Positions 2 through 47,772 of a stretch of 64,000 bases of DNA are shown one piece after another. The stretch spans positions 24,400 through 88,399 of the forward strand of contig JAFUCC010000002.1 in NCBI GenBank assembly GCA_017459925.1, written 5' to 3'. Position numbers and translations under genes: made by a program. This stretch comes from Eggerthellaceae bacterium (GTDB taxonomy: Bacteria > Actinomycetota > Coriobacteriia > Coriobacteriales > Eggerthellaceae). The notes under the pieces were generated by a model. That model searched no databases. It had not been told where the DNA came from and saw nothing but the letters and a program-made list of their open reading frames with translations. Position 1 is the stretch's first letter. Every line of letters begins with the position of its first letter.

Positions 2-6612
<6,611 letters not shown>

Positions 6613-9700: not shown

Positions 9701-10653
9701 TCTTGCTCGTCGAAGCCTTGGTTTGCGTCGATGTCGGCGTTGCGCGTCACGCAGATGACGTTCGTGTGCTTGATCTTGTACATGCTGAAGATTTCGGGAA
9801 CGAACATCTCGATGGCGTGCTCGAGGAGGATGAACTGGAATCCGCGGCCAGGCAGTTTGATGACGCGTTCACACTGGTGCGGCAGCGGGATGAGCCCGAG
9901 CACCACGCCCTCGGCGCCGCCTTTTTCCTTCTTGGACTTTTCCTTGTCCTTCTTCTTTTTCTTCTTCTTGCGCTCTTCTTCGGTCGCTTCGTCGTCGAGG
10001 CGCACGAGGATGTAGAGCTTGCCGTTTTCCAGATGGGGGAACGGGTGGCGCGAGTTGATGATCTGCGGCGAGAGGAACGGCTCGATGTTGTGCTTCACGA
10101 GGCCGAACAGGTAGTTTCGCTGCTCTTCGGAAAGGTCGTCGGGACGCAGGTGCCGCACGCCTTCCTTCGCCAATTGGCCGCGCACATGCTCGTACGTCGA
10201 TTCGTGGATGGGGTAGAGCTCGTGGCAGCGCTCGTGGATGGCGCGAATCTGCTCTTTGGCCGTCATGCCCGTCTTGGAATCGACGACGGGCGGGTCGATG
10301 AACGACAGGTCGGTAAGACTGCCGACGCGGACCATGAAGAACTCTTGGAGGTTGCTCCAGAAGATCGAGATGAAGTTGAGCCTCTCGAGCAGCGGAACTG
10401 ATTCGTCAGCGCCCTGGTCGAGCACACGCTCGTTGAACGTCAGCCAGGACAGCTCGCGGTTCTGCATGAAAACGCTGCCGCTGTCTTCCTCTTCCTCTTC
10501 GTCTTCATCGGCGGCAAATTCGTAGTAGGCATCGTCGCCTTCGGAGGCGCCGGCAAGGGCGGCTTCGTCGGACAGGGGTGCCAGAGGCTCGCTTGCTTGG
10601 TCGGCTTCGAACTCGCCAAATGCCGTGCCGTCGGTGATGCTCTCTTCGCTCAT
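6733..10653 (-). CDS. ppk1: polyphosphate kinase 1 fused to ~550 aa acidic low-complexity C-terminal tail
   Basis: PPK1-type sequence over the N-terminal ~750 aa ([14 protein letters not shown], two PLD-like His motifs [11 protein letters not shown] and [12 protein letters not shown]). ATG at 10653 preceded by GAGGAA; the track start 10671 is an upstream GTG. Tail from ~8400 down to 6736. Confidence 0.9.
7625..7872 (-). repeat. (Glu-Pro)n coding microsatellite-like repeat inside ppk1 tail
   Basis: Translates to [78 protein letters not shown]; DNA is iterated GGYTCNGG units. Confidence 0.9.
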
Positions 10654-10755
10654 ACGGTTTCCTCTGTTCACGATGGGTTAAAACATCATTACACTATACC
10701 TCATCAAGGTGCATATTTGGTGTATCATCGAGGCATCTTCGAGAAAGGAAACCGC

Positions 10756-15190: not shown

Positions 15191-15198
15191 GCCGCAAC

Positions 15199-15269
15199 TT
15201 GAACGTTGTCCCAGGGACGATGTTCAAATTGAAGGAATATTTGAACATCGTCCCTGGGACAACGTTCAA
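15199..15269. repeat. family-A paired palindrome (copy A1)
   Basis: 31-bp perfect inverted arms TTGAACGTTGTCCCAGGGACGATGTTCAAAT / ATTTGAACATCGTCCCTGGGACAACGTTCAA, 9-nt loop; between purN stop and XdhC-like start. Confidence 0.95.
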
Positions 15270-15287
15270 TTCCGAAGAAGGAATGAT

Positions 15288-25050: not shown

Positions 25051-25117
25051 AATGCCTGCAAATCAAGCGAAAAGTGGGCTCGCAACCAAAAGACAAACGC
25101 ACGCGTGAGACACAACC

Positions 25118-25154
25118 CTGGCTGGAAGACAACCGGAAGGCGCCTTCCAGCCAG
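25118..25154 (+). promoter_or_regulatory. 11-bp stem hairpin in adhesin 5' leader
   Basis: CTGGCTGGAAG-15 nt loop-CTTCCAGCCAG followed by TGTTGTGGTGT. Confidence 0.5.
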
Positions 25155-25213
25155 TGTTGTGGTGTATGTGCGGTGGGAAAGCGGGCAAGGTAGCGACAGC
25201 AGGGGAGACTTTC

Positions 25214-28200
25214 ATGGCGAAGATGAAGAACACGATGCGGAAGCTGACCGCGATGCTCGCGGCCGTGGCGCTGACAGTCGGCCTGTGCCCGGCTGGCGCC
25301 TTCGCAGTTGCGGGGGGGGGTACGCTGATTCCTCGCTAAACGACACCAACGCCATTACGGAGCAAGATAACGAGGCCGACGCCCAAGACGAGGGTGTTGG
25401 CCTCGGTGCTGATTCCAACTTGCAAGTGCAAGGCGGAATGACTGCACAGGCGATGAACGATCCGGATAATCCAGTGTATTGGAAATACGATTCCGCTACG
25501 TCTACCTTGTATCTCGGTGGATCAAAAGAAGGGATTCTAGAAGACGCGAACGAGTTCAGGGCTACCAAGACGAATAACACAATTTGGGCATTTCAAGAGC
25601 CTAACGTATCGGGATCGGGCGGGTGGTTTACTGGGGACATGGCAACCCAAGTTCGTAATGCAAAAAGCGTGAAGGTGGTCAATCCCCTAACAACTAAAAG
25701 CATCCACGGATGGTTTAAGAACATGACGCAACTTACTGATGTCGATTTGGAGGGCTACACGCCCATGGTGTCGAACTACTCTGTCGATTACGTATCGGCA
25801 TTTGAGGGTTGCACGTCTTTGGTAACGCTTAATGTGAAGCCCCTCTTTTACCATCCCGACCCGAACGAATACTACGTTTCCGTCTTCTATGATCGCATGT
25901 TCTACAATTGCTCTTCGCTTACGACGCTGCTTTTTCCGTCTGAGTACGTGCACTACGCTTGGGATCCGGGCGGTTCGAATCCAATCGAATACTACTACTA
26001 TGCCAAGCGCGGAGGCGGGAACATAGAATCCAGTCGTCTGTCGGCTGAAAAAATGACGTTTTACGGCTGCACTAAGCTTATCGGCGGCGAGGGGACGACG
26101 GTGGAAGCGCAAGTGTCACGTTTCGGAGGCACGGGGACGACTTTTCCTGAAACCATGGAAGGGTGCTTGGGGGTTGCGAACCTGTTTCAGATTGACGGGA
26201 CTATCGACGATCAAACTCCGTTTGCTGGCAGTTACGGGGTGTTCACGGCGTCGTCTTACGGCCTTGTTTACGACTCTAATGATGGGTCGCATCAAAGCAA
26301 GTCATACGATATCGCGCTAAATGCGAAGCCGACATTGGCATCAGCATCTTTCTTGGGGTTCAATTCGAGCGACCTGGTGTTTATTGGGTGGAACACCAAG
26401 GCTGACGGCTCGGGCACGTCATACGAGGTTGGCACTGAACTGGAAATGAGCCGAGCGACCATACTATACGCCCAATGGGCCTATCCTGTTATCTATGATG
26501 CTAACGGCGGCAAGGCGGGCACGGCTCCTGAAGACCAGATGAAAGAGCCCGGCAAGAACCTCACCCTGCATTCCGGCAAGCCTTCGCGCGACCCGGACCT
26601 GACACCCGTCACGACCACGCTGGCCTACAACGACGGCAGCGATGCCACGTCTGAGCTGAAAACCAATCGCACCGAGGAGTGGGAGTTCAAGGGCTGGACC
26701 ACTGAAGACACGGTAAGCGCCAGGAAGGGTGTCGTGACCGATGCGGAGTGGGATGCCTTGGAATCTTCGAAAAAGTATGCTCCGGGCGATACGTATTCAA
26801 CTGACGCCGAGCTGACGCTATATGCGCAGTGGAAGGCGAAAAACCCCTTGTATGCTTCTGTGGCATTGCCGAAGCCGGCCGATCGCGAAGGGTACGATTT
26901 TCTCGGGTGGTACACGGCTGCTGAGGGCGGTACCAAGGTCGGCGATGCGGGCGCGACCATCACGCCCGAGACCGATGCGACCCTGTACGCGCATTGGGCG
27001 AAGAAGTCCTATGAGGTCACCTACGATGCGAACGGCGGCGCAGGCACGCTCGAATCCGATACGAAGACCTATGGAGATACGCTCACACTGAAGAGCTCGG
27101 GCGTTTCGCGCGATAACGAGTCGGGTAAGGTCACGCTAACGCTCAACTACAAGGGCGGCTCGTATCAGGCGGGGAAGGACTCCGATTACTGGGCGTCTAA
27201 GAGTTCGGATGAGGCTACGACCACCACTACGTTCACGTTCACGGGCTGGAGCAGCAGCGCAGACGCCGAGACTGCGGAGTATTCTGCTTCCAACTCGTGG
27301 GCCTACACGGCCAACGCGGCTGCGAACCTGTACGCCGTCTGGTCCTCGAACACAACCGGCTACTCGTCGTACACGCTTCCTGATGCGACGCATCCCCAGA
27401 CTGGCGACAAGACGCACACGTTCAAGGGCTGGACGACTGCGCAGTACATCTCGACAGAATGGGGCAGCATCCCTGAAAGCTCGAGGTGGGAGGCGGGCGC
27501 GAGCTACGGCCCCGTAGAGGCCGACACTACACTCTACGCCGTATGGGATCCGCCGGCTTACGCTATCGAGTACGATGCCAACGCGGGCGACGATACGGTA
27601 TCCGGCGACCTCAGCGCGCAGAGCTATACGGCTGATGTGAACGTGCAGCTGCACGCTGCCCTCACGCGCACTCCTAAGGATGCCTCCTTCACCGTGACTT
27701 TCGACGCCAACGGCGGCGCGGTGTCTCCCGAGTCTGAGACGGCGACTAACTCGACCACGTACACGTTTAAGAAGTGGAACACGCAAGCCGACGGCGGCGG
27801 CACGGCATATGATGCGAGTGCCCAATATACGATCAACGCCGATGTGAAGTTGTATGCCCAATGGGAGAAGGGCGGGTCGGTTGCGTCCGTCAATCTGCCG
27901 ACGCCCACGCGCGACGGCTACAACTTCCTCGGCTGGACCGAAGCAGCTGATGGATCTGGCAATAAGCTGACTGGAACTTACACGCCGTCAGACGATGTGA
28001 CGCTGTACGCCCAGTGGGAGGCGAAGACCTACGCCGTGACGTATGACGTCAACGGCGGCGATGCGGACAGCAAGCCGGCCGATGCGACGAAGACTCACGG
28101 GGTCGACCTCGAGGTTGGGGCGGCTGCCACGCACGCGTATACGACTGGCGTCGTAACCGTGAAGTTCGACGGGCATGAGGGAACGGCGGCCTCAGGCTCG

Positions 28201-30738
28201 TCGCTTGACGACGCGAGTGCGCACTACAAGGTGGAGTACACGTTCCTGCGCTGGCAGGTCGGTGAATCCACTGCGTATGCCCCCGGCTCGCTGTATAAGA
28301 AGAACCAGGCCGCCACGCTAACCGCACAGTGGGCTGAGGAGACCTCGTTCACAGGTGTCGTGGAGCTGCCGACCGTGGAGCGCGAGGGCTACGACTTCCT
28401 CGGCTGGTACGACGGAGCTGGCAATGATGCCAACCTCATCGGCGATGCGGGAAGCGAGTACACGCCCGATGCCACTACGCCCGTGACGGTTACCTTGCAT
28501 GCGAAGTGGAAGGTGAAGGAGTACGACGTCACATACAACGCCAACACCGATCAGACGGTGACGGGCCTGCCCGATGCGGAGAAGAAGACGCATGGCGAAA
28601 CGTACACAGTTAGCTCCAACACGCCGACGCGCTCCGACACCGAGACGCACAGAATCACCGTAACCTACGACAGCCGCGGTGGAGCGACGACCCCTGACCC
28701 GAGCACTCTTGACGCCACGGTCGGCTACGTGTTTGACAAGTGGAACACGGCAGCTGACGGTAGCGGAACGGGGTACGCGCCTGGTGCTTCGTACACGGAC
28801 AACGACGAACTCGCGCTTTATGCCCAGTGGAACGAGAGCCTGTCCGGCAACACGGTGACGCTCCCCGCCGGGCCGACGCATTCCGTGGCCGGCTTCACGT
28901 TCCAGGGCTGGACGACCGACGATTACAAGACCACCGCGTGGGATAGCATTCCCAACGAGTCGAAATGGACGGCTGGCGCGGACTATAGCCCCACATCGAA
29001 TATCACGCTCTATGCTGTGTGGAACCCGCCGGTTTACGAGGTGTCCTACGACGCCAACGGCGGCGCGAGCGCTCCCGACAAGCAGTACAAGAAATACGAC
29101 GAGGGCCTGACTTTGTCATCCGAGGAGCCGACCTGGAACAACTCCACTGAAAGCATTGCCGTCACCTACAACGGCAATGGGGGTAGCGCGGAGCGCGGTT
29201 CCGACACGGTTACCGCCACGACAGGCTACATGTTCGAGAAGTGGACCGACCGGCAAGACGGCGACGGCACCGAGTATCAGCCGTCCGGCTCGTACACGCC
29301 CAATGCCGACGTGACGCTGTACGCGCAGTGGACCGAGTCGACCACATACGAGCCGGAGAAGGTGAAGCTCCCTGCTGCCGACCGGCCGGGCTACACGTTC
29401 CTGGGCTGGTACACCGCAGCCGACGGTGGCGAGTTCGTCGGCGATGCAGGCGCCGAGATCGCGGCGCCCGAGGAGACTACGACGTATTACGCGCAGTGGC
29501 AGGCATACGAGGAGCCGTCTGACCCCGTGTCGTATACGGTGGTCTTCCAGGTCCCCGATGACACGGATGGCGGTTCGGTCGGGAAGGACAGCCAGGAGTT
29601 CACGTTCGGCGAATCGCAGGCGTTAGACGCAGGAACCATCACGCCGCCTGCGGGCAAGGTGTTCTCGCACTGGGCTTCGGAAGGCGGCACAACCTACACG
29701 CAGAAGCAGCTCGTGAGTAACCTGACGAACGTCGACGGCGGGGAGGTAGTGCTGACGGCCGTGTGGAAGGATGCGCCCGCTGACGGCTCGCAGACATACA
29801 CCATTCAGTACTACGAGCAGGGGACGGATGGTTCGACCTACGCTATGGAAAGCGAGGAGACGATAGTCGAGGCGGTAGACACAGAGGTCTCTGTGCCCGA
29901 ATCCGCAAAGCTGGCGCCTCTCGGATTCCATTACGATGAGACGAATTCCGCCCCGTCTGGCACGGTTGAAGCCAACAGCTCCACGGTGCTCACCGTTTAC
30001 TGGGCGCGCAATCAGTTTGACGTCACGTTCGAGAAGGGTGCTGACGATGCTACCGGCTCGATGGATGGGCAGCATTTCGTCTGGGCTTCCGGCGAGGCGC
30101 TTACGCCTAATGCCTTCTCTCGCGCAGGCTGGAAGTTTACTGGCTGGAAGGTCACCGAGCAGAACGGTATGACGGCACAGGGCGAGAGCCTCATGAGCGC
30201 TCAGTCAAACGACGTTGTTGCAATGGTTGCGCAGGCGGTCGGCGATATGGTTGCTGACAAGGCCGACGGTTCACGACTTACGTGGGAAGATAACGGGACT
30301 GTTACGCTGACAGCGCAGTGGGTGAAGGATTCGAGCGGCGGGGATGACCCAGATAATCCAGGTGGTGATGACCCAGACAATCCGGGCGGCGACGACCCTG
30401 ATAATCCGAACAAACCCGGAGGCGATAAACCTGGTGGTGGTTCTGGCGACGCGGATGGTGAGTCCGGCAGTATCGAGAAAGCTGATTTTGTCCGCGAAGC
30501 AGCCAATAATAACTCGAACGCCAATGACAAGGCTCCCAGTACAGGCGATTCTAATAAGCTCATTGTCGAGGGCTTGGCCGTCATGGCGCTTCTTGCCGCT
30601 GTTGTGATGGCGCTGTCGCTTCGACAGTCACGTAAGCGCGCACACGTAGTTGGCACCTGGTCGGCTCCGGCTCGTCAAGCCGCCGCAAAGCGCCCAACGC
30701 CTCGCAAGACGACGCGTGGAAGGCATGTCAAGCGGTAA
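25214..30738 (+). CDS. giant cell-surface repeat adhesin, frameshifted at a G9 tract (phase-OFF or pseudogene in this sequence)
   Basis: ATG 25214 behind AGGGGAG encodes the signal peptide MAKMKNTMRKLTAMLAAVALTVGLCPAGAFA in frame 2. That frame stops at 25339. The 1.8k-aa body is open in frame 1 from before the G9 tract (25312-25320). Body: DUF285/BspA-like N-region (FEGCTSLVTLNV, MFYNCSSLTTLLF, FYGCTKLIGG), ~20 Listeria-Bacteroides (Flg_new)-type repeats (Y.V.YDANGG ... F.GW.T..DG.G..Y ... LYAQW), then a C-terminal PSTG motif, TM helix and basic tail. Confidence 0.85.
25312..25320 (+). repeat. poly-G (G9) homopolymer at signal-peptide/mature-protein junction
   Basis: cGGGGGGGGGt read directly; one extra G or two fewer fuses the signal peptide frame to the long ORF. 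Confidence 0.95.
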
Positions 30739-34078: not shown

Positions 34079-34924
34079 GTGGCAGGAGATTTCACGATAA
34101 CGCTGGAATCCTACGACGGAACCGACAAAGATGTCGTCGTAGCCGCCGGCGTAGATAAAATCGGGCACCGGGCGTTCACGAACAATCGGTACGTGCATTC
34201 GATAACGTTGCCTGAAGGCGTCGAGGTCATCGAAGACGAGGCCTTCTCAGCGTGCGTGAACCTCCGCTCCATCAACATTCCCTCTACCGTGCGAGCAATT
34301 GGCGCTGGCGCATTCAAAGGCTGCTGGCGGCTTGAGGAGGTTCATGTTCCCGAAGGCGTTGAGACCCTTGGCCTGAAGACGTTCGCGCGATGCCGTTCGC
34401 TCAAGACGCTCACGCTGCCCACGACATTGCGTTCGATTGGCGAGGCATGCTTCCAGCATTGCGGCGACTTGGAAACGCTCGTCCTGCCCGATGCGCTCGA
34501 GAGCATCGGGACGAGCGCCTTCTACAACTGCAAGACGCTGAAGGACGTCGCCTGGCCCTCGGCTCTTGAAGTAGTCGAAAACGAGGCGTTCCGCGGATGC
34601 GCTGCTCTAGAAGAAGTCGAGATGCCCGAGTCGGTTGGCTGGATGGGGCAGCGGTGCTTCAAGGATTGCGCATCGCTCGCATCTGCCGCCTTGCCGCCGA
34701 ACATCGAGTTCATCGAGGAGGGCATGTTCGAGGGTTGCTCGGCGCTCGATGCCGTGGTGGTTCCCAACGATTTGTCTCATGTCGAATCTCGCGCGTTTGC
34801 CGACAGCGGCTTATCGCAGGACGACATCGCGTTCCCGGAGGACTGCCACATAGCCCCCGACGCCTTCGCGCAATCGGAGCCGAAAGAAGTGACCGGCCGC
34901 GCCGAGTGGGATCCCGAATCATGA
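34079..34924 (+). CDS. BspA-type leucine-rich-repeat protein without signal peptide
   Basis: ~10 iterations of I..GAF.GC..L..V.[LI]P..[VL]; GTG start 4 nt after ffh stop. Confidence 0.75.
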   Translation: MAGDFTITLESYDGTDKDVVVAAGVDKIGHRAFTNNRYVHSITLPEGVEVIEDEAFSACVNLRSINIPSTVRAIGAGAFKGCWRLEEVHVPEGVETLGLKTFARCRSLKTLTLPTTLRSIGEACFQHCGDLETLVLPDALESIGTSAFYNCKTLKDVAWPSALEVVENEAFRGCAALEEVEMPESVGWMGQRCFKDCASLASAALPPNIEFIEEGMFEGCSALDAVVVPNDLSHVESRAFADSGLSQDDIAFPEDCHIAPDAFAQSEPKEVTGRAEWDPES

Positions 34925-34939
34925 TTGAACGGCAGGGAG

Positions 34940-35023
34940 TTGAACATCACCCCAGGGAAGATGTTCAATTTGAGGGCGATTAGTCCTCGGAAAATTGAAC
35001 ATCTTCCCTGGGGTGATGTTCAA
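34940..35023. repeat. family-A paired palindrome (copy A2)
   Basis: 32-bp perfect inverted arms TTGAACATCACCCCAGGGAAGATGTTCAATTT / AAATTGAACATCTTCCCTGGGGTGATGTTCAA, 20-nt loop; preceded by degenerate half copy TTGAACGGCAGGGAG. Confidence 0.95.
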
Positions 35024-35064
35024 CCACTACGGTTGTGCGGTTTGGTTGAAGTGAGTTTCCAGGC

Positions 35065-37677: not shown

Positions 37678-38604
37678 ATGGCAAACAGGACAGAGACGGC
37701 TCCCACGTTCCAGGACGTCATCATGAACCTGCAACGGTATTGGGCCGACCAGGGCTGCGTTGTGTTGCAGCCTTACGACAACGAGGTCGGTGCTGGCACG
37801 TTCCACACGGCCACCACGCTGCGGTCGCTGGGTCCGGGGGTGTGGCGCACGGCATACGTGCAACCGTCGCGTCGCCCGACAGACGGACGCTACGGCGAGA
37901 ACCCCAACCGCCTGCAGCATTACTACCAGTTCCAAGTCATCCTGAAGCCGTCTCCCGATGACGTGCAGCAGCTGTACCTCGACTCGCTGCGCGCCATCGG
38001 AATCGACATCGACGAACACGATGTGCGCTTCGTCGAGGACGACTGGGAGTCCCCGACGCTTGGCGCCTGGGGCCTCGGCTGGGAGGTTTGGATCGACGGC
38101 ATGGAAGTCACGCAGTTCACCTACTTCCAGCAGGTCGGCGGCTTCGAATGCAGCCCGGTTCCAGCCGAGATCACGTACGGGCTCGAGCGTCTGACCATGT
38201 ACATCCAAGGCGTCGACAGCGTCTATGACATCGTCTGGTCACGCGGCGAGGACGGCACCGTGTTCACATATGGCGACGTGTTCCTCGAGAACGAGCGCGA
38301 GTTCTCGGCGTACAACTTCGAAGTCGCCGATACCGATTTCCTGTTCGGAGAGTTCGACCGTTACGAGCGCGAATGCAACCGCGTGCTCGAGGCGGGCCTT
38401 CCGCTGCCGGCGTACGACTATGTGCTGAAGTGCAGCCATGCATTCAACCTGCTCGATGCGCGCGGCGTCATCTCGCAGACCGAGCGCATGGGCTACATCT
38501 TGCGCGTGCGCACCATCGCCAAGGCGTGCTGCGCGAGCTATCTCGAGCATGTCGTGGGCGAGAGTACCTCGACCGAGGGGAAGGGGGCCGAAGATGGCGA
38601 ATAA
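37678..38604 (+). CDS. glyQ: glycine-tRNA ligase alpha subunit
   Basis: [37 protein letters not shown]; ATG 37678 behind GAAGGAG. Confidence 0.95.
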
Positions 38605-40678
38605 GACGCTTGCCTTTGAAATCGGCACCGAGGAGCTGCCCGCATTCGATTTGCATGCCGCAACCGAGAAACTCGGCGATTTGGCTTCTACGGCGCTTGA
38701 CGGCGCAAAGATTCCGCATGGCGACGTTTCCGTGTACACCACGCCGCGCCGCCTCATCGTCATCGTCGCCGATGTTCCCGAGGCTACCGAAGCCGCCGTT
38801 GAAGAGTTCCGTGGCCCTGCTGCCAAGATCGCGTTCGACGAGAGCGGCGAGCCGACGAAGGCTGCCATCGGTTTTGCACGCGGCAAGGGCGTCGACCCTG
38901 CGAGCCTCGAGCGCCGCGACGAGAACGGCACCGAGTACGTGTACGCCGTGAAGGAGACCCCTTCGCTTGACGTGGTCGCATTGCTGCCCGACTTGCTCGG
39001 CAACCTCATCACGGCTATCTCTTGGCCTAAATCGCAGCGCTGGGGAAGCCGCCGCGAGCAGTTCAGCCGTCCGGTGCGCTGGATCCTCGCGATGCTCGGC
39101 GAGACGGTCGTGCCCGTCGAGTTCGCTGGCCTCGTAGCCGGGAACACGACGCGCGGCCACCGGTTCTTGAACCCCGGTCCGCATGAGGTTGCGTCGGCTG
39201 AGAAGCTCATCGACGTGTTGCGTGCTGCGAACGTCGTTCCGAGCGAAGCAGAGCGCGAGAGCTCGATTCGCGAGCAGGTGAGAGCCATCGAGGCCGAAAC
39301 GGGGCTCGTCGCCGAGCTTCCCGCGAAGACGATGGAAGAGGTTGTGAACCTGACCGAATTCCCTACTGTCATGGTCGGCGAGTTCGACGAGCTGTTCCTG
39401 GCCGTGCCGAAGGAGATCACGGTTGACGCCATGCTCGTTCATCAGCGTTACTTCCCGCTGTTCAATGCAGACGGCACGCTTTCCAACAAGTTCCTCATCA
39501 CGTCGAACGGCAATCCCGATTTCCGCGAGAACATCGTCGACGGCAACCAGCGCGTTGTCGCCGCGCGCCTCTATGACGCGAAGTTCTTCTATGACGAGGA
39601 CCTGAAGAAACCGCTCGAGGCATATGTCGAGCGCTTGGGCGAGGTCGTGTTCCAGGAATCCCTCGGCACGACGCGCGCCAAGACCGACCGCATCGTCGAG
39701 CTTGCGAAGCGCCTTGCTGCAGATGCGGGGCTCGCGGGCCAAGACGCCGCAGATGCCGAGCGAGCAGCTTATCTGTGCAAGGCAGACCTTGTCACTGGCG
39801 CGGTGGTCGAGTTCACGAGCGTTCAGGGCATCATGGGCCGCTACTATGCGAAGGCTGCAGGCGAGACCGACCAGGTTGCTGAAGCCATCGCAGACCATTA
39901 CCGTCCGCGATTCGCAGGGGACGACACGCCGGCCAGCATGGTGGGCAAAGTTGTTGCCGCAGCTGACAAGCTCGACACGATTTGCGGCCTGTTCGCTGTG
40001 GGGCAAGGCCCGACTGGCTCTTCCGACCCGTTTGCCTTGCGCCGTTCCGCCATCGGCATTTTGGCGATGCTCGAAGACGGCCTCGACATCTCGCTCATCG
40101 ACGCCATCGACTCCGCGCTCGACATTTACGAGCAAGGCGGATTGAAGTTCGACCGTGAAGCCGTGCGTGCCGAAGTCGTCGATTTCTTCGTTACGCGCAC
40201 CAAGGTCATGTTGCGCGATTCCGGCATAGCAGCCGATACCGTCGACGCCGTTCTCGCATCTGGCGTTGCCGAGCCTATGGTCATCATGGGCCGTGCCCGC
40301 GCGCTTGAAAGCGCCCGAGCCAACGACAAGGAAACGTTCGACGATTTGGCCACGGCTTACGCGCGCGCGAACAACCTACGCGATGCCGAGCTTGGCGCCG
40401 ATGTCGACGAGTCGCTTTTCGGCGATGAGGAGAAGGCGCTGAACGCTGCCGTGGCAGCCGCCGAATCCGCCGTTGCCAATGCGCTCGCTGCCGATGATTA
40501 CCCGCAGGCTCTGTCTGTGCTCGCTGGTTTGCGCGGGCCTATCGATGCGTTCTTCGAGAACGTCATGGTGATGGATGAGGACGACAAGGTGCGCGCCAAC
40601 CGCCTGAAGCTCCTCAACCGCTTCGTCGGCGTGTTCGGGAACGTCGCGGACTTCGGGAAGATGTCGAAGAGCAAGTAA
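38594..40678 (+). CDS. glyS: glycine-tRNA ligase beta subunit
   Basis: [17 protein letters not shown]; ATG 38594 overlaps the glyQ end by 11 nt. Confidence 0.93.
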
Positions 40679-40680
40679 CC

Positions 40681-40783
40681 GATGAGTAGCAGGACTGTCC
40701 TGCTACTCATTTTCTAGCAACCAACCGTGCTCGCAGACTGTCATAGGAAATGAGTAGCAAGACAGTCCTGCTACTCATTTTTT
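40681..40783. repeat. family-B paired palindrome (copy B2)
   Basis: ATGAGTAGCAGGACTGTCCTGCTACTCAT (40682-40710) and ATGAGTAGCAAGACAGTCCTGCTACTCAT (40750-40778), 39-nt spacer; between convergent glyS and the VTC gene. Confidence 0.95.
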
Positions 40784-41681
40784 ACGAAGCGCGCTGCATG
40801 TCCTCTAAGCCGTAGCCTGGTGATGGCTGGATCAGGGTTTCGGTATTCATGGCGCGCTCCTTGGATGTGGGGATGCGGTAAATCGAGACCTTGCCGGAAT
40901 CGGTTTTGCGCACTTGGACGGCGCCTTGTTCGGCGAGGACGCGCTTGTAGGCATTTCCGTATTTCGAGAAGGAACGCGGGTAAGCTCCAACCGACGAGAG
41001 AAGCTCGCAGAGCCATACAGGGTAGCCGCCTGCGCACTTGATCTCCATGATCACCTGATCGGGCGCAGTGACGGGGCGGCGTTGAACCGAGCCTTCCTCC
41101 ATAAGGTCGACGTAGCAGATGTCTTCGTCGAACGTGATGCGGTCGACGCAGTCTTCGTCTGCCGGGTCGATCTTGCACCACGCTTCTCGCAAGCAGCTGA
41201 TGAGCATCGACGGTTTCAGGCCTTCGTAGCGGTCGAAGAACGCATCGAGCTCGCGTGCGATTTGCACTTTGCCGGGGAGCAGCTCCTTGCTGCCATCTGT
41301 TCCGGGAATGGGGAGCTGCGTTTGCGCGTCCTCGTAGGACATGCCGTTGATGTAGGCTCGCGCGCCTTCGGCGCTCATGCGCACGCGGCGTTTGTACACG
41401 ATGCCCTTGAACTTCTTCTTGATCTCGACGAATACCGACTCTGCTTCTGAAAACGGGCCGTAGCTGCGGATGCGCAGCTTCTCTTTGTAAAGGGGCTTTT
41501 CAAGCGATCTGCAGATCAGCGAGCGGTCGGGCGTGTCCAAATAAAGGCTGTCGATGCGCGTCGCCCCGTAGTCGTCGAGGCGCATGTGGGCGGCGAGCCC
41601 TGCCTTGATGGCCTCGCATTGCCCGGTCGTTATGAGGTACTTCTTCTCTTTGCGTTCAAAGGTGTCTGCTGCAGTAGCCAT
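40782..41681 (-). CDS. VTC-domain protein (triphosphate-tunnel, Vtc4-like polyphosphate polymerase fold)
   Basis: FERKEKKYLI N-terminal acidic/basic tunnel motif, SLYLDTPD, KEKLRIRSY, VEIKKKFKGIVYKRR, CLREAW, RITFDEDI, VIMEIKCAGGYPVWL, SFSKYGNAY. Collinear with bacterial VTC-domain proteins as I recall them. ATG 41681 behind AAGGGAAAGGAAG. Confidence 0.8.
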   Translation of the reverse strand: MATAADTFERKEKKYLITTGQCEAIKAGLAAHMRLDDYGATRIDSLYLDTPDRSLICRSLEKPLYKEKLRIRSYGPFSEAESVFVEIKKKFKGIVYKRRVRMSAEGARAYINGMSYEDAQTQLPIPGTDGSKELLPGKVQIARELDAFFDRYEGLKPSMLISCLREAWCKIDPADEDCVDRITFDEDICYVDLMEEGSVQRRPVTAPDQVIMEIKCAGGYPVWLCELLSSVGAYPRSFSKYGNAYKRVLAEQGAVQVRKTDSGKVSIYRIPTSKERAMNTETLIQPSPGYGLEDMQRAS

Positions 41682-41711
41682 GTTGGGCTTCCTTTCCCTT
41701 GTGCCATGAGC

Positions 41712-41744
41712 ATGGTACGCGTCGCACCTGAATCGAAGCTGAAA
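41712..41744 (-). promoter_or_regulatory. Pho-box-like operator plus -10 for the VTC gene
   Basis: Minus strand reads TTTCAG-cttcg-ATTCAG-10 nt-TACCAT. Confidence 0.55.
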
Positions 41745-41750
41745 GAGCGT

Positions 41751-41782
41751 TTTCAGGCAGGTTTCAGCTTCTCGGCTAGAAT
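41751..41782 (+). promoter_or_regulatory. Pho-box-like operator plus -10 for the two-component operon
   Basis: TTTCAG-gcagg-TTTCAG-9 nt-TAGAAT, 28 nt upstream of the response-regulator ATG. Confidence 0.55.
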
Positions 41783-41809
41783 GGGCTTGTACGCGGAAAG
41801 GCGGAACCA

Positions 41810-42484
41810 ATGCAGATACTCATCGTTGAAGACGACATTCGGCTGGCCCAGGCAGTTGGGAAAATCCTCGAGGAAAACGACTATCAAGTCGATATGGTGC
41901 ACGATGGGCAATCAGGTCTCGATTACGCCGAGTCGGGCATTTACGACGTGGTGATCCTCGACGTCATGTTGCCGAAGATGGACGGGTTCGAGGTGTCGAA
42001 GCAGCTGCGCCGCAAGGGCGTAGACACGCCGGTGCTCATGCTTACGGCACGCGCCCAGATTCCCGACAAGATCGAAGGGCTCGATTCGGGCGCAGACGAC
42101 TACATGACCAAGCCGTTTTCGCCGGCAGAGTTGCTGGCGCACCTGAGGGCTCTCACGCGGCGCACAGGTCAGGTCGTGTTCGAGACCCTTGCGTTTTCCG
42201 ACCTCGAGCTGAACCTCGAAAGCCACGATTTGAAATGCGGCAGCAAGTCCATCAACCTGTCGTACAAAGAGTTCTCGCTCATAAACATCCTCATGACCAA
42301 CCATGGGCAAATCGTGTCGAAAGAAACCCTCATCTCGAAAGTCTGGGGCGTGGAGTCAACCGCCGTCGATAATAATGTGGAAGCATACGTGTCGTTCTTG
42401 CGCAAGAAGCTGAAGTTCCTCGGTTCGAAGGCGCAAATCGAGACGATCAGGAAAGTGGGATACCGCCTGACCGACGAGGGTTAG
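41810..42484 (+). CDS. OmpR/PhoB-family response regulator
   Basis: MQILIVEDD, receiver Asp in VILDVMLPKMDG, winged-helix C-domain ending IETIRKVGYRL. Confidence 0.93.
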   Translation: MQILIVEDDIRLAQAVGKILEENDYQVDMVHDGQSGLDYAESGIYDVVILDVMLPKMDGFEVSKQLRRKGVDTPVLMLTARAQIPDKIEGLDSGADDYMTKPFSPAELLAHLRALTRRTGQVVFETLAFSDLELNLESHDLKCGSKSINLSYKEFSLINILMTNHGQIVSKETLISKVWGVESTAVDNNVEAYVSFLRKKLKFLGSKAQIETIRKVGYRLTDEG

Positions 42485-42485
42485 C

Positions 42486-43832
42486 ATGCTGAAAAAACTT
42501 CGCATCAAGTTCGTGGCGATCATCATGGCCTCGGTGGCCGTGGTGCTCGCCATCGTGTTCACGGGAATCTGCGTATCCGAATACCAACGCAGCATGTCGA
42601 CGGTGAGCGAAGCGCTGAGCACTTCGATCGACAGGGCGAGTAACGACGGCCTTAATGCACCCGATCCGTTCATGAAGGGCGGCATGCGGTTTGACATCGA
42701 AAGCGCTTTCGAGGACTTCGATGATGTTGACGAGCTGTCCGACATGGTGAACGAGTTCATCGATGAACGCGAATTCGGAGGCCCGCGCATTGGTGGAGGC
42801 CGCGAGGAAGAACGCTCTCTTGTGCCAGTGGCCGTGTACGTACTCGATTCCTCCGGGACCTACACCGCCGTATCCCGCTACACCACCGCTTATATCGAGG
42901 AGGATGTGCTTACGTCTGCTTCAAGCCAGCTTGTAAGCGTTGGGGAGGGGAGCGGTGAGCTTTCGAGCCTGGGGCTCGTGTACGAGAAGCGCTCGGTTGA
43001 AGGATTCACCTATGTCGCCTTCGCCGATGCATCGTATGCGTCGAGCTGGCAATCGCTCGCAGTTTCGCTTCTAATTGCGGGAATCCTCACCCTTGCCGTG
43101 TTCTTCGTGATCGCGCTATTGCTCTCGAAGTGGGCGCTCAAACCCGTTGAAGAGGCGTGGACCGCGCAACGTCAATTCGTGGCCGACGCATCTCATGAGC
43201 TGAAGACCCCGCTAACGGTCGTTCTGGCGAACACGTCTATCCTGCTGAAGCACCCAGAGTCCACCATCGCGAACCAAAGCCAGTGGATCGAGAGCACCCA
43301 AGTGGAAGCCGAGAGCATGCAAGGGCTCGTGAACGAGATGCTTGAACTTGCCCAGGTCGAATCGCGGGCAAATGTGCAGCATGAAGAATTCGATTTCAGC
43401 GATATGGTGGCCGGCGAGACGCTGCAGTTCGAGTCTGTCGCCTACGAGCGCGGCTGCCGGTTCGAGGAATCGGTTGCCGAGGGAATCACGGTTTCCGGAG
43501 ACGCCCAACGCCTGCGCAAGATGACCTCGACCCTTATCGAGAACGCCTTGAAGTACGTCGATGAGGGCGGGTTGGTCGAAGTGAAGCTGGAAGCCAAAGG
43601 CGACATAGCCCATATGACCATTCACAACACTGGCTCGACAATAGCGCCCGAGGATCTTCCGCATATCTTCGACCGTTTCTACCGCACCGACAAGGCGCGC
43701 ACATCCGGTACCGGCGGCTTCGGCCTCGGCCTCGCCATCGCCCGCGAAATCGCCCGCGAGCACGACGGCGACATAACCTGCGACAGCAACGAATCAGGTA
43801 CCACTTTTACTGCAACCCTCCCGATAGCTTAA
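42486..43832 (+). CDS. sensor histidine kinase (two TM helices, ~150 aa external loop)
   Basis: H-box ASHELKTPLT, N-box ENALKY, G-boxes HNTGSTI / GTGGFGLGLAIA. Confidence 0.92.
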   Translation: MLKKLRIKFVAIIMASVAVVLAIVFTGICVSEYQRSMSTVSEALSTSIDRASNDGLNAPDPFMKGGMRFDIESAFEDFDDVDELSDMVNEFIDEREFGGPRIGGGREEERSLVPVAVYVLDSSGTYTAVSRYTTAYIEEDVLTSASSQLVSVGEGSGELSSLGLVYEKRSVEGFTYVAFADASYASSWQSLAVSLLIAGILTLAVFFVIALLLSKWALKPVEEAWTAQRQFVADASHELKTPLTVVLANTSILLKHPESTIANQSQWIESTQVEAESMQGLVNEMLELAQVESRANVQHEEFDFSDMVAGETLQFESVAYERGCRFEESVAEGITVSGDAQRLRKMTSTLIENALKYVDEGGLVEVKLEAKGDIAHMTIHNTGSTIAPEDLPHIFDRFYRTDKARTSGTGGFGLGLAIAREIAREHDGDITCDSNESGTTFTATLPIA

Positions 43833-43902
43833 AAAGTAAAAGAGAGTAGCCCACTGCAGAGGGAAGGGGGTGAGGGCGATTCCGCAGCTACGCGAGGCGG
43901 CA

Positions 43903-44006
43903 AGTTGAACGTTACCCCAGGGACGATGTTCAAATTGAAAGAACGCTTTAACGCAAAGTTGAAGTTTCAACAAATTTGAACATCGTCCCTGGGGTAACGT
44001 TCAACT
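43903..44006. repeat. family-A paired palindrome (copy A3), nested in an outer 13-bp inverted repeat
   Basis: 34-bp perfect arms AGTTGAACGTTACCCCAGGGACGATGTTCAAATT / AATTTGAACATCGTCCCTGGGGTAACGTTCAACT, 36-nt loop; outer GAGGGAAGGGGGT (43859-43871) pairs with ACCCCCTTCCCTC (44037-44049). Confidence 0.95.
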
Positions 44007-44081
44007 AGCTGGTGAGTCTGCGAGGACAAGCCCGAAACCCCCTTCCCTCAACCCGGAGCGGACAGAAGGACAAACGCATCC

Positions 44082-44114
44082 TTTCAGCATCTTTTAAGTT
44101 TCCTTTCCTACTAT
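44082..44114 (+). promoter_or_regulatory. Pho-box-like operator plus -10 for the DUF4956 gene
   Basis: TTTCAG-catct-TTTAAG-10 nt-TACTAT, 41 nt upstream of ATG 44155. Confidence 0.55.
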
Positions 44115-44154
44115 TTGCCTATCAACGGGAAACCTTTGGGAAAGGAAACCAATC

Positions 44155-44853
44155 ATGGATGCATTGTTCACTTCGGTGCTCGGCACGACCGAGTCGGCTA
44201 TGACGACGGTGACGACCGCCGGCTTCATGTGGTGCACGCTCGCGTCGATCGTCCTCGGCTTGGTGTGCGCGCTCATCTACATGTACAAGCACGACTACTC
44301 GAAGAACTTCGTCGTGACGCTGGCGCTCATGCCCGTCATCGTGCAGATGGTCATCACTCTCGTCAACGGAAACCTTGGCGCGGGCGTCGCAGTCATGGGC
44401 GTGTTCAACCTCGTGCGCTTCCGCTCGATAGCGGGTACGGCAAAGGACATCGGAAGCGTGTTCCTGGCAATGGCCATCGGCCTCGCGACCGGTATGGGCT
44501 ATATCGGCGTTGCCGCCATCCTCACGGTCGTCGTGGGCGTGTTCAACATCATTTACGTCACGACTCCGTTCGGAAGCCCGCGTGAGTCCGCCAAGAAGAA
44601 GCAGCTGAAGATCACGGTTCCCGAGGACCTCGAGTTCGAAGGCGCGTTCGACGAAGTGCTCGCGAACTACACGGCGACGTGCGAGCTGCAGAACGTCTCG
44701 ACGAGCAACATGGGCAGCTTGTACCAGCTTGAGTACTTGGTTTCCATGAAGGCTGACGGGCTCGAGAAGCGCATGATCGACGAGCTGCGCTGCCTGAACG
44801 GCAACCTGAAGATCTCGCTGGGGTCTCCGCAGATGAAACGCGAAGTCCTGTAA
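44155..44853 (+). CDS. DUF4956-family membrane protein
   Basis: Four predicted TM helices with LVRFRS and GLATGMGYIG motifs, then a soluble tail LKITVPEDLEFEGAFDEVL ... DELRCLNGNLKISL; matches DUF4956 proteins as I recall them. Confidence 0.8.
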   Translation: MDALFTSVLGTTESAMTTVTTAGFMWCTLASIVLGLVCALIYMYKHDYSKNFVVTLALMPVIVQMVITLVNGNLGAGVAVMGVFNLVRFRSIAGTAKDIGSVFLAMAIGLATGMGYIGVAAILTVVVGVFNIIYVTTPFGSPRESAKKKQLKITVPEDLEFEGAFDEVLANYTATCELQNVSTSNMGSLYQLEYLVSMKADGLEKRMIDELRCLNGNLKISLGSPQMKREVL

Positions 44854-44928
44854 GACGCTGGTGTGGGGTTGGTGGGCGATTCCGGAGCGAAATGCTTCAA
44901 GGCGACCAAAGCATCGTCCATCCGCGGA

Positions 44929-44966
44929 AAAACGACCCAGGTGGTTATCCATCTGGGTCGTTTTGC
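44929..44966 (+). terminator. intrinsic terminator after the DUF4956 gene
   Basis: AAAACGACCCAG-12 nt-CTGGGTCGTTTT. Confidence 0.8.
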
Positions 44967-45060
44967 GTTACTATTGGATTCGTAACAAGCGAGTGTCCTT
45001 CTGGCGCTCGTTTCCGTGTTGGTTTCAGCATAAATGCAGCATCGAGTGGAGGAGTGCAAA

Positions 45061-47772
45061 GTGGCTGAGGCAGTCAAGCGCGTCTACAAATTCGGCAAGG
45101 ACGCACGGGGCAACAACGTAACCGAAGGCAATACCGACATGAAATACGTGCTCGGCGGCAAGGGCGCGAACCTCGCCGAGATGGCCAACATCGGCCTGCC
45201 GGTGCCTCCGGGATTCACCATCACGTGCCAGACGTGCATGGAGTATGCAAATGCCGACAACACCTGGCCGGAAGGCGCTCTCGACGAAATCGCCGAGTAC
45301 CGTGCCGACCTGGAAGAGCGCATGGGCAAGCGCATCGGCGACGACGCCGACCCGCTGCTCGTTTCCGTCCGCTCGGGCGCTCCCATGTCGATGCCCGGCA
45401 TGATGGACACCGTCCTCAACCTCGGCCTGAACGACCGTTCCATCAACGGCCTCATTGCCCAGACCGAGAATCCCCGTTTCGCATGGGACAGCTACCGCCG
45501 CTTCATCCAGATGTTCTCCAACGTGGTCATGGGCATCGACGGCGACAAGTTCGAGCATGCCATCACGGCCGCCAAGGACGCCAAGGGCGTCAAGGAAGAC
45601 ACCGAGCTCGACGCCGCCGACCTCGAAGCGCTCGTAGCCACTTTCAAGGGCATCTTCTCCGACAGCGTCGACGCTGCCGAGTACCCCGAGCTCGTCGTTG
45701 ACGGCAAGGTTCAGTTCCCGCAGGACCCGATGGCCCAGCTGAAGCTCGCCATCGAGGCCGTGTTCGGCTCTTGGAACAACCCGCGCGCAACGCTCTACCG
45801 CAAGCAGAACAAGATTGCCGACGACCTCGGCACCGCCGTCAACGTGCAGTGCATGGTGTTCGGCAACAAGGGCGACACATCCGCCACGGGCGTTGCCTTC
45901 ACGCGTAACGCCGCCGACGGCACCAAGGAATTCTACGGCGACTACCTCGTTAACGCCCAGGGCGAAGACGTCGTCGCCGGCATCCGCAACACCTCGCCGA
46001 TCTCCGAGCTGAAGCACGTCTCCGGCCTCGAGACCGCCGGCCAGGAGCTTGAGGACATCTTCGTGCTGCTCGAGAACCACTTCCGCGACATGATGGACAT
46101 CGAGTTCACCATCGAGCAGGGCAAGCTGTTCATGCTGCAGACCCGCGTCGGCAAGCGCACCGCCGCCGCCGCGCTGAAGATCGCCATCGACATGGAGAAG
46201 GAAGGCCTCATCACCAAGGAAGAGGCCGTCATGCGCGTCGCTCCCGAGCAGCTCGACCAGCTGCTGCATCCGCAGTTCGACAAGAGCGCCAAATACGACG
46301 TCGTGGCCCGCGGCCTGAACGCTTCTCCTGGCGCTGCCGTCGGCGCTGCCGTGTTCTCGGCTGAAGCCGCCGTTGCCGCCGCCGAGGAAGGCAAGAAGAC
46401 CGTCCTCGTGCGTTGGGAGACCACGCCCGACGACCTCGCCGGCATGATCGCCGCCGAGGGCATCCTCACCTCGCATGGCGGCAAGACCTCGCACGCGGCC
46501 GTCATCGCCCGCGGCATGGGCGCTCCGTGCGTCTGCGGCGTCGAAGCCTTGAAGATCGACGCTGAGAAGAAGGAAGCCGCCATCGCCGGCACCGACATCG
46601 TCATCAAGGAAGGCGACCTCATCTCGCTCGACGGCACCACGGGCATCGTGGTCCTGGGCGCGGTCGACCTGGTGCAGCCCGAGCTCACCGGCGACCTCGA
46701 CACCATCCTCGAGTGGGCTGACGAGTTCCGCACCCTCGGCGTTCGCGCCAATGCCGACAACCCGGCCGACGCGCAGCTTTCGCGCGACTTCGGCGCGCAG
46801 GGCATCGGCCTGTGCCGCACTGAGCACATGTTCCTGGGCGACCGCAAGCAGATCGTGGCCGACATGATCCTCGCCGAGTCGGAGAGCCCCGAGTATTACG
46901 CGGCGCTTGACAAGCTGTACGATGCACAGCAGGGCGACTACTACGAGATGCTGAAGGCCATGGACGGCCTGCCCGTCATCATCCGCCTGCTCGACCCTCC
47001 TCTGCACGAGTTCCTTCCCTCGGCCCAAGAGCTCGCCATCAAGGTTGCTGTCGACGCCGTGAAGGGCGAACACGACCCCGCGATCAAGAGGCTGCTCAAC
47101 GCTGCCGAGAACATGGCGGAAATGAACCCGATGCTCGGCCTGCGCGGCTGCCGCCTCGGCATCGTCATGCCCGGCCTGTCTGCCATGCAGGTGCGCGCCA
47201 TCGCCACTGCCACGGCGAAGCTGATCAAGGAAGGCTTCGACCCGAAGCCCGAGGTCATGATTCCGCTTGTCTCGATGGAAAACGAGCTCATCTACGTCCG
47301 CAACGAGGCCGAGAAGGCCATCAAGGAAGTCGAAGAGCGCGACGGCGTCGACCTGTCCTTCATCGAAATCGGCACCATGATCGAGTTGCCGCGTGCGGCT
47401 ATCACCGCTGACGAGATCGCCGAGAAGGCCGACTTCTTCTCCTTCGGTACCAATGACCTCACGCAGACGACGTTCGGCTTCAGCCGCGACGACGTCGAGG
47501 GCAAGTTCTTCAAGGACTACGAGAACCTGGGCATCATGAAGGTGAACCCGTTCGCGACAGTCGACGACGGCGTCGTGAAGCTGATCGACATCGCCGTCAA
47601 GGGCGGCCGTTCCACGAACCCCGAACTCGTGACCGGCGTCTGCGGCGAGCACGGTGGCGATCCGGACTCCATTCACAAGTTCCACAAGGTCGGCCTGACC
47701 TATGTGTCCTGCTCGCCGTACCGCGTGCCGGTTGCTCGCCTTGCCGCTGCTCAGGCTGCGCTCGAGAAGTAA
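45061..47772 (+). CDS. ppdK: pyruvate, phosphate dikinase
   Basis: GGKGANLAEM, phospho-His TSHAAVIARGMG, GLCRTEHMF, CGEHGGDP; GTG 45061 behind GGAGGA. Confidence 0.95.
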   Translation: MAEAVKRVYKFGKDARGNNVTEGNTDMKYVLGGKGANLAEMANIGLPVPPGFTITCQTCMEYANADNTWPEGALDEIAEYRADLEERMGKRIGDDADPLLVSVRSGAPMSMPGMMDTVLNLGLNDRSINGLIAQTENPRFAWDSYRRFIQMFSNVVMGIDGDKFEHAITAAKDAKGVKEDTELDAADLEALVATFKGIFSDSVDAAEYPELVVDGKVQFPQDPMAQLKLAIEAVFGSWNNPRATLYRKQNKIADDLGTAVNVQCMVFGNKGDTSATGVAFTRNAADGTKEFYGDYLVNAQGEDVVAGIRNTSPISELKHVSGLETAGQELEDIFVLLENHFRDMMDIEFTIEQGKLFMLQTRVGKRTAAAALKIAIDMEKEGLITKEEAVMRVAPEQLDQLLHPQFDKSAKYDVVARGLNASPGAAVGAAVFSAEAAVAAAEEGKKTVLVRWETTPDDLAGMIAAEGILTSHGGKTSHAAVIARGMGAPCVCGVEALKIDAEKKEAAIAGTDIVIKEGDLISLDGTTGIVVLGAVDLVQPELTGDLDTILEWADEFRTLGVRANADNPADAQLSRDFGAQGIGLCRTEHMFLGDRKQIVADMILAESESPEYYAALDKLYDAQQGDYYEMLKAMDGLPVIIRLLDPPLHEFLPSAQELAIKVAVDAVKGEHDPAIKRLLNAAENMAEMNPMLGLRGCRLGIVMPGLSAMQVRAIATATAKLIKEGFDPKPEVMIPLVSMENELIYVRNEAEKAIKEVEERDGVDLSFIEIGTMIELPRAAITADEIAEKADFFSFGTNDLTQTTFGFSRDDVEGKFFKDYENLGIMKVNPFATVDDGVVKLIDIAVKGGRSTNPELVTGVCGEHGGDPDSIHKFHKVGLTYVSCSPYRVPVARLAAAQAALEK

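Follow-up and report, generated by a model that had tools for sequence, protein, structure and literature searches.

Is polyphosphate made in bacteria by polyphosphate kinases alone, or also by relatives of the yeast VTC polymerase? In the literature VTC-type synthesis is treated as restricted to eukaryotes, and PPK1 and PPK2 are credited with all polyphosphate synthesis in bacteria. The question is raised by a locus within a 64,000-nucleotide (nt) stretch from the genome of a gut actinobacterium of the Eggerthellaceae (contig JAFUCC010000002.1, positions 24,400 to 88,399; hereafter the window), in which a gene for a VTC-domain protein is found together with genes for a two-component system and a DUF4956 membrane protein. 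Judged by sequence and modelled fold, the nearest match of the VTC-domain protein is the polymerase domain of yeast Vtc4, and we put the probability that it makes polyphosphate at roughly 0.5. The copy in the window is nothing exceptional within its family, which is large (about 3,500 clusters at 50% identity) and has been noticed before; a genome scan confirmed at least 595 relatives, from 600 candidate stretches.

Gene content of the module

The VTC-domain protein (299 amino acids (aa) from an ATG), a Vtc4-like triphosphate tunnel protein of Pfam family PF09359, is encoded on the minus strand at 40782..41678. On the plus strand there follow genes encoding an OmpR/PhoB-family response regulator (41810..42484; 224 aa; Pfam Response_reg and Trans_reg_C), a sensor histidine kinase (42486..43832; 448 aa; Pfam HisKA and HATPase_c) and the DUF4956 protein (44155..44853; 232 aa; Pfam PF16316). 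All four open reading frames (ORFs) are present in the ORF list with strong Pfam assignments, as given in the first-pass annotation of the window, which described them as a tight unit. The gene set holds, but the unit is less tight than that: a 322-nt spacer holding a palindrome with 37-nt arms separates the kinase gene from the DUF4956 gene. The VTC and DUF4956 genes are split and lie on opposite strands. In the ORF table the VTC frame is also open from an upstream TTG, giving 342 aa; this version is regarded as an over-extension because the predicted VTC promoter falls inside it.

The VTC-domain protein resembles Vtc4

The proposed VTC assignment is borne out by a profile hidden Markov model (HMM) search, in which the protein matched PF09359 far over the gathering cutoff (137.8 bits vs 23; E = 5.4e-40; model positions 1-233 of 235). 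An identical protein is recorded in an Eggerthellaceae metagenome-assembled genome as “polyphosphate polymerase domain-containing protein”. No SPX domain was matched in any of the four proteins by Pfam, and neither the VTC protein nor DUF4956 is covered by a model in NCBIfam.

Single-sequence searches of the VTC and DUF4956 proteins against PDB sequences returned noise only. A profile of 40 diverse VTC homologues, searched against the same sequences, matched the Vtc4 catalytic domain (3g3q) with E = 9e-16; for Vtc2 and Vtc3, its inactive paralogues, the E values were only 1e-7 to 1e-8. An AlphaFold2 model built on the alignment of these 40 homologues (predicted local distance difference test (pLDDT) score 88) was compared with PDB structures by Foldseek. 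The top 13 matches were all VTC tunnel domains (Vtc4, Vtc2 or Vtc3), with E values down to 5e-14 and template modelling (TM) scores of 0.64-0.67. The next-best match, the hydrolase ygiF (E = 2e-8; TM score 0.43), came far behind Vtc4, as did class IV adenylate cyclases (CyaB) and thiamine triphosphatase.

Residue mapping made use of a Vtc4 sequence of 721 aa, the length given for PDB chain 8i6v_E. At each of the nine published positions this sequence has the amino acid expected, and its central part agrees with the Vtc4 residues in the 3g3q profile alignment. According to a preprint on the cryo-electron microscopy structure of the VTC complex, synthesis needs K200, R264, R266, K281, Y359, R361, E426, S457 and K458, and among these only K458 differs in the inactive Vtc2 and Vtc3, where it is Ile or Leu. 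Eight of the nine are present in the window’s protein and are invariant or nearly so among the 40 diverse bacterial homologues. K200, R264, R266, K281 and R361 correspond to K13, R69, R71, K87 and R164, while E426, S457 and K458 were mapped to E212, S238 and K239 by a weak local alignment and the identity of the EVK and FSK motifs, since global hmmalign failed to bridge a yeast insertion. The C-terminal part of the VTC profile, searched alone against the PDB, found no match; the mapping of this part agrees with the overall fold match of the model to Vtc4. K239, the counterpart of K458, lies in the motif SFSKYG and is invariant in the bacterial family.

Other features of the tunnel weigh against polymerase activity. 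Y359 of Vtc4 aligns to the non-conserved C162, and where Vtc4 has T198 the bacterial family carries an additional glutamate, E11, which is invariant. The N-terminal metal-binding motif typical of CYTH proteins and other hydrolytic tunnel enzymes is ExExK. In the VTC family the corresponding motif is R9-x-E11-x-K13, with only the second of the two glutamates, so that E11 partly restores the hydrolase motif. The protein might thus be hydrolytic or non-polymerizing, e.g. a tripolyphosphatase, a short-chain polyphosphatase or an enzyme that processes nucleoside triphosphates, with DUF4956 as an MgtC-like regulator or anchor and the module consuming or sensing phosphoanhydrides. Besides E11 and the non-conservation of Y359, such a role would suit the bacterial tunnel enzymes characterized so far, which, like the next-best fold match ygiF, are polyphosphatases, and a genome that already has PPK1 and PPK2. 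We nevertheless consider it rather unlikely, since Vtc4 is clearly closer than ygiF or the CYTH proteins in the fold comparison, the lysine that marks the active polymerase against its inactive paralogues is invariant, and the thirteen invariant basic residues of the bacterial family suit a long polyanion.

The DUF4956 protein is a membrane protein of MgtC-like architecture

The second assignment made in the first-pass annotation also withstood the profile search: the DUF4956 protein scored 64.8 bits against PF16316 (gathering score 30.6; E = 1.1e-17), and all 50 aligned relatives match the same model. The family is strongly conserved, with an invariant Gly-rich core and an L-V-R-F-R-S motif. 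The AlphaFold2 model (pLDDT 74) contains hydrophobic helices at residues 21-43, 50-69, 74-91, 96-114 and 117-136, followed by a C-terminal beta-alpha-beta-beta-alpha-beta domain (residues 148-223). The protein had been described as having four transmembrane helices; it is a membrane protein, but the count is not upheld, as the model has five hydrophobic helices (four to five transmembrane). By the positive-inside rule, its N-terminus would lie outside, with the Arg motif and the C-terminal domain in the cytoplasm.

A fold search with the model gave only weak matches, to ACT, PII and the C-terminal domain of MgtC (2lqj). Sub-threshold Pfam matches to MgtC were found in 27 of the 50 family members (best E = 0.06); they run collinear with almost all 121 positions of the MgtC model. 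One source labels a DUF4956 member YhiD. Profile-profile comparison by hhalign gave E = 0.29 with Escherichia coli YhiD and E = 0.015 (probability 3%) with a three-sequence MgtC alignment. Because these tests were not significant, homology of DUF4956 to MgtC is suggested but not established; the predicted architecture, about five membrane helices and a cytoplasmic ACT-like domain, looks MgtC-like.

Homology to Vtc1 was considered and rejected. The DUF4956 profile finds no Vtc1, Vtc3 or Vtc4 chain in the PDB, Pfam assigned the protein to DUF4956 alone, and Foldseek gave no VTC transmembrane match, so DUF4956 is not a homologue of the yeast channel. The suggestion that it is a channel analogue of the VTC transmembrane subunits therefore has no sequence or fold relationship behind it, and it is an analogy only, because the protein resembles MgtC, a regulatory membrane protein.

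Conservation of the gene neighbourhood

The module was compared across 80 loci, one genome per species, from Coriobacteriia, Clostridia, Bacilli, Bacteroidota bins and one spirochaete, scored with custom HMMs. A DUF4956 gene lies directly 3′ of the VTC gene, on the same strand, in 78 of the 79 loci with room for it, and in 53 of these 78 the VTC stop and DUF4956 start overlap, typically by 8 nt. Three look-ups from the DUF4956 side, with proteins 45-51% identical to that of the window and independently precomputed Pfam labels, all returned the same arrangement. The expected co-occurrence of the two genes is thus found from both sides. Fusions of the two proteins were absent among 389 proteins (269 VTC and 120 DUF4956 homologues).

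The third recurrent component is the two-component system. An OmpR-type regulator and a kinase are encoded upstream of VTC in 39 of the 60 loci with enough flanking sequence (20 in a single operon, 19 divergently) and downstream in three more, i.e. a related system adjoins VTC in about 70% of loci, as had been anticipated. In the window the regulator matches Response_reg (E = 2e-31) and Trans_reg_C (E = 5e-21). The kinase sequence reads as two hydrophobic segments around a predicted extracytoplasmic domain of about 155 aa, followed by HisKA and HATPase_c; no PAS domain was detected in it. Its N-terminal sensor region (residues 1-222) is homologous among the VTC-linked kinases of other taxa, and the two-component system is therefore a co-inherited partner rather than a random neighbour. 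The proteins fall below the cutoffs of the NCBIfam equivalogs PhoB (183.6 vs 296.2 bits) and PhoR (175.7 vs 334.2 bits), and also below those of all other named NCBIfam two-component equivalogs; the best for the regulator were RppA and PhoB.

In 67 of 83 sources a further gene follows DUF4956, encoding a beta-helix protein of about 600 aa with a lipoprotein signal (Cthe_2159, PF14262; for example L049:7544-9370). The trio VTC-DUF4956-Cthe_2159 is conserved, and we found no description of it in the openly accessible literature. Together with the secreted CotH and DUF4832 proteins encoded beside the pair in pel operons, it suggests a link of the module to the membrane or envelope.

This setting raises the possibility that polyphosphate made by the VTC protein is exported through an oligomeric DUF4956 conduit, a non-homologous analogue of the Vtc1/3/4 channel, and delivered to the cell surface during synthesis. 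Such export would fit a soluble enzyme that is almost always paired, with translational coupling, to a polytopic membrane protein. It would also fit the recurrent third genes, all of them for extracytoplasmic products, and the extracytoplasmic sensor domain of the kinase; yeast, moreover, couples synthesis and translocation. We still judge it unlikely. DUF4956 has neither homology nor fold similarity to the VTC pore, its architecture is MgtC-like, and no ring of basic residues is evident within its membrane span. The window’s lineage lacks the secreted partner, and the authors of the S. intermedius study discussed below considered the product cytoplasmic. It is equally doubtful that in most lineages the secreted partners (the Cthe_2159 beta-helix protein and the CotH kinase) bind or use a surface polymer.

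At two unrelated loci, bona fide MgtC-family ORFs occur a few kb upstream of the VTC module (L036:4208-4612 and L076:3231-3983), with E values of 8e-27 and 1e-14 to E. coli YhiD. Their presence there may be a coincidence.

A shared promoter box

Alignment by eye of the divergent intergenic regions of related loci revealed a conserved box, a tandem TTTCAG-N5-TTTCAG with 11-bp periodicity, 9-10 nt upstream of a TAnnAT hexamer. The pattern TTTMAGNNNNNWTTMAG has three matches in the window against 0.02 expected, one before each transcription unit. The predicted VTC promoter (41712..41744, minus strand) consists of the box TTTCAGCTTCGATTCAG (41744 to 41728), a 10-nt spacer and the -10-like hexamer TACCAT (41717 to 41712). 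Facing it is the predicted promoter of the regulator and kinase genes (41751..41782, plus strand), with the box TTTCAGGCAGGTTTCAG (41751-41767), a 9-nt spacer and TAGAAT (41777-41782). The third, the predicted DUF4956 promoter (44082..44114, plus strand), comprises the box TTTCAGCATCTTTTAAG (44082-44098), located 57 nt ahead of the DUF4956 start, a 10-nt spacer and TACTAT (44109-44114).

Across the 80 loci the box is about 70-fold enriched within 200 nt upstream of VTC. The box and -10 hexamer upstream of VTC are kept across taxa with a fixed spacing of 9-10 nt, and at 19 related loci with divergent genes the intergenic region also holds a mirrored box facing the regulator gene. Box-plus-(-10) elements also precede DUF4956 in loci L001, L090, L092, L091 and L003.

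Tandem repeats that replace the -35 element are the layout of activator sites of the PhoB/OmpR class. No consensus sigma-70 promoter was found in the region 40600-45100, which fits an activator site in place of the -35 element. Only two terminator-like matches were detected in the same region, both within coding sequence and fewer than in shuffled sequences. From the conservation and position of the box, the three promoters are predicted to form one regulon under the module’s own two-component system, with the regulator binding the box.

Upstream of DUF4956 in locus L091 (6020-6058) there are four consecutive TTTCAG/TTTAAG repeats with 11-bp spacing, suggesting that the number of regulator-binding half-sites may vary.

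Inversion of the locus in the window

The VTC and DUF4956 genes, which almost every other genome has side by side in one orientation, are split on opposite strands in the window, where the module is flanked by the glycyl-tRNA synthetase beta gene glyS (38438-40678) and the pyruvate phosphate dikinase gene ppdK (45034-47772). Locus L092, at the same chromosomal site, shows the canonical order: glyS, kinase and regulator on the opposite strand, VTC, DUF4956, ppdK. Relative to it, the kinase-regulator-VTC block is inverted in the window, L001 and L090, and the odd gene order of the window is thus an in-place inversion of these three genes. The canonical relatives L092, L091 and L003 already have a box and a -10 hexamer directly upstream of DUF4956. 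Because DUF4956 had its own regulated promoter before the rearrangement, the inversion was harmless, and the control common to the three units was kept.

The opposite orientation of VTC and DUF4956, with the two-component system and a palindromic spacer between them, could be taken to mean that the four genes are mere neighbours, grouped by coincidence. Against this stand the adjacency of VTC and DUF4956 elsewhere, a promoter box that the three units share and the rest of the window lacks, and a split that is explained by inversion at a conserved chromosomal site. The comparative data effectively refute a coincidental grouping, and we regard it as extremely improbable.

L092 also carries, between glyS and the module (1733-2608), a gene of the Kinase-PPPase family (PF03618). 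The equivalent interval of the window, 40679-40781, is too small to hold it, so this gene was lost or moved in the inverted lineage.

The spacer between the kinase and DUF4956 genes of the window is occupied by a nested palindromic element (43859..44049, no strand assigned), with outer 13-nt arms at 43859-43871 and 44037-44049 and inner 37-nt arms at 43900-43936 and 43973-44009. It belongs to a family with three copies in the window (15198-15270, 34939-35024 and 43904-44005) and an arm consensus of about GTTGAACGTTACCCCAGGGACGATGTTCAA; each of the six arms fits with no more than 3 mismatches, where no match would be expected. The copy in the spacer is probably a repetitive extragenic palindromic (REP)-like element or a transcript-end hairpin, and the family as a whole resembles either REP-like repeats or a hairpin terminator common to the three sites. 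In L090 the intergenic region between the regulator and VTC genes is enlarged to 554 nt (4447-5000) by repeats of a palindromic unit, GTTTCA...CCCTGGCAC, which fill it; here a different intergenic repeat family has been inserted, with a box promoter on either side.

Proposed mechanism and points against it

The following scheme, which we regard as about an even bet, would account for the module as a polyphosphate-synthesizing system. From its domain content, the kinase would sense a signal outside the cytoplasmic membrane and phosphorylate the OmpR/PhoB-type regulator. The regulator, as the conserved position of the motif suggests, would bind TTTCAG-N5-TTTCAG at the place of the -35 element and activate VTC, DUF4956 and its own operon. 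Conservation of residues and fold points to the VTC protein as a soluble, catalytically competent Vtc4-type tunnel enzyme, which would most likely make polyphosphate from the phosphate of ATP. Near-obligate linkage and the overlap of stop and start codons argue that it acts with DUF4956, whose invariant Arg-Phe-Arg motif and ACT-like domain are predicted, from the model and the positive-inside rule, to face the cytoplasm. DUF4956 might either dock and regulate the enzyme at the membrane or pass its product outward.

Apart from the altered tunnel residues, several facts count against this scheme. DUF4956 is unrelated to the Vtc1 channel and resembles MgtC, whose known function is regulatory rather than that of a pore; the conserved basic residues of DUF4956 are at the predicted cytoplasmic face, not along the membrane path. 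A search for a Cthe_2159 homologue found none in the window, and the gene is also absent from the window’s closest relatives. Binding of the regulator to the box is a prediction from conservation and position. The polymerase assignment itself comes from sequence and fold, and we found no published enzyme assay of a bacterial member. Lastly, in the S. intermedius study, the only published deletions of the homologous genes had no effect on Pel or aggregation, the traits assayed.

Comparison with known systems

The statement that bacterial VTC-domain proteins are functionally uncharacterized agrees with the openly accessible literature, in which we found no functional study of one. Entries on DUF4956 and bacterial VTC proteins there are limited to transcriptome and proteome tables, one note on convergent mutation in C. 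thermocellum and two Pel papers. Both of these (bioRxiv 10.1101/768473 and 10.1101/2024.04.20.589940) describe a “poly-phosphate polymerase” gene beside a DUF4956/MgtC-like one. Whitfield et al. recorded an accessory group of Gram-positive pel operons that consists of cotH, the “poly-phosphate polymerase”, DUF4956 and DUF4832. The S. intermedius study covers the group SIR_1591-1594: SIR_1593 was modelled as VTC-like with catalytic residues present, its neighbour was described as having four membrane helices and an ACT domain and as a member of the MgtC family by CDD, and the polymer was suggested to stay cytoplasmic. The same study states that the SIR_1592-1594 combination (MgtC-like, VTC-like and CotH-like kinase) was not found outside pel operons. 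Our comparison shows the VTC/DUF4956 core to be widespread outside pel operons, in a different context, with a two-component system and Cthe_2159.

The module and the pel accessory group share the two-gene core of a VTC-like enzyme and an adjoining DUF4956/MgtC-like protein with an ACT domain, and in both the presence of the catalytic residues is a bioinformatic prediction. The window differs in having no pel operon, CotH or DUF4832; it has a dedicated two-component system instead, and most relatives also have the Cthe_2159 lipoprotein.

With yeast VTC the module has in common the family PF09359, the best fold match, eight conserved triphosphate or metal ligands and an enzyme genetically tied to a membrane protein. 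Unlike the yeast complex, the window’s system lacks an SPX domain, and a DUF202-type three-helix channel domain is neither fused to the enzyme nor supplied by its membrane partner, the unrelated DUF4956. The window’s enzyme, known here from its sequence and model, lacks Y359 and has the additional tunnel glutamate E11. Regulation also differs, through a two-component system here and inositol pyrophosphates in yeast.

Proteins of the MgtC/SapB/YhiD family (PF02308) share with DUF4956 an N-terminal bundle of about five helices, a cytoplasmic ACT-like domain and, at the equivalent position, a comparable Gly-rich core motif, although DUF4956 gives no statistically significant sequence match to them. 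The known role of MgtC is to regulate ATP synthase and phosphate homeostasis, and it is not known to work with tunnel enzymes. The two-component system resembles PhoB/PhoR in its OmpR/PhoB regulator and HisKA kinase, its 11-bp tandem repeats located 9-10 nt upstream of the -10 hexamer and its presumably autoregulated divergent operon. It differs in equivalog scores below cutoff, in a box (TTTCAG) distinct from the pho box and in the large extracytoplasmic domain of the kinase.

CYTH and other tunnel hydrolases, such as E. coli ygiF, share the superfamily fold and a basic tunnel with the window’s protein, which keeps one of their two ExExK-type glutamates; the similarity is far weaker than that to Vtc4, the window’s protein has no CHAD domain, and the gene context is different. 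The established bacterial polyphosphate kinases PPK1 and PPK2, whose genes also lie in the window, would be active on this polymer too but have unrelated folds.

Other features of the window

Both polyphosphate kinases reported in the first-pass annotation are real, though their genes are located about 30 kb from the VTC module. PPK1 (6733-10671, minus strand) and the two-domain PPK2 (10597-12513, plus strand; 638 aa) are encoded by divergent neighbours (6733-12513), both without the TTTCAG-N5-TTTCAG box. At its C-terminal end (6733-8430, minus strand) the PPK1 ORF runs about 560 residues beyond the kinase domains. This tail is extremely acidic and Pro/Glu-rich, with long PEPEPE runs and a short basic motif at its end, and is unusual for a polyphosphate kinase.

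The window further encodes an 1877-aa surface protein with seven Listeria-Bacteroides repeat domains (25105-30738) and a BspA-type leucine-rich-repeat protein (34079-34924), both of which are probably cell-surface adhesins. The VTC and DUF4956 proteins had no match among anti-phage defence models.

Significance

The present work defines a candidate regulon of three promoters and one motif. If the VTC protein does make polyphosphate, ppk knock-out studies in gut anaerobes would need to be re-read, the origin of the eukaryotic enzyme could be traced to bacteria, and there would be a tangible starting point for working out what MgtC-like proteins do biochemically. By analogy with yeast, and still improbable in our estimate, many gut anaerobes may have a third, PPK-independent polyphosphate pathway, in which a dedicated, envelope-sensing two-component system would control a Vtc4-type polymerase docked on an MgtC-like membrane protein, and the polymer would be sent to the cell surface, there to be bound or used by secreted partners. 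Were this the case, a bacterial synthase-translocase would have arisen independently of the eukaryotic VTC channel.

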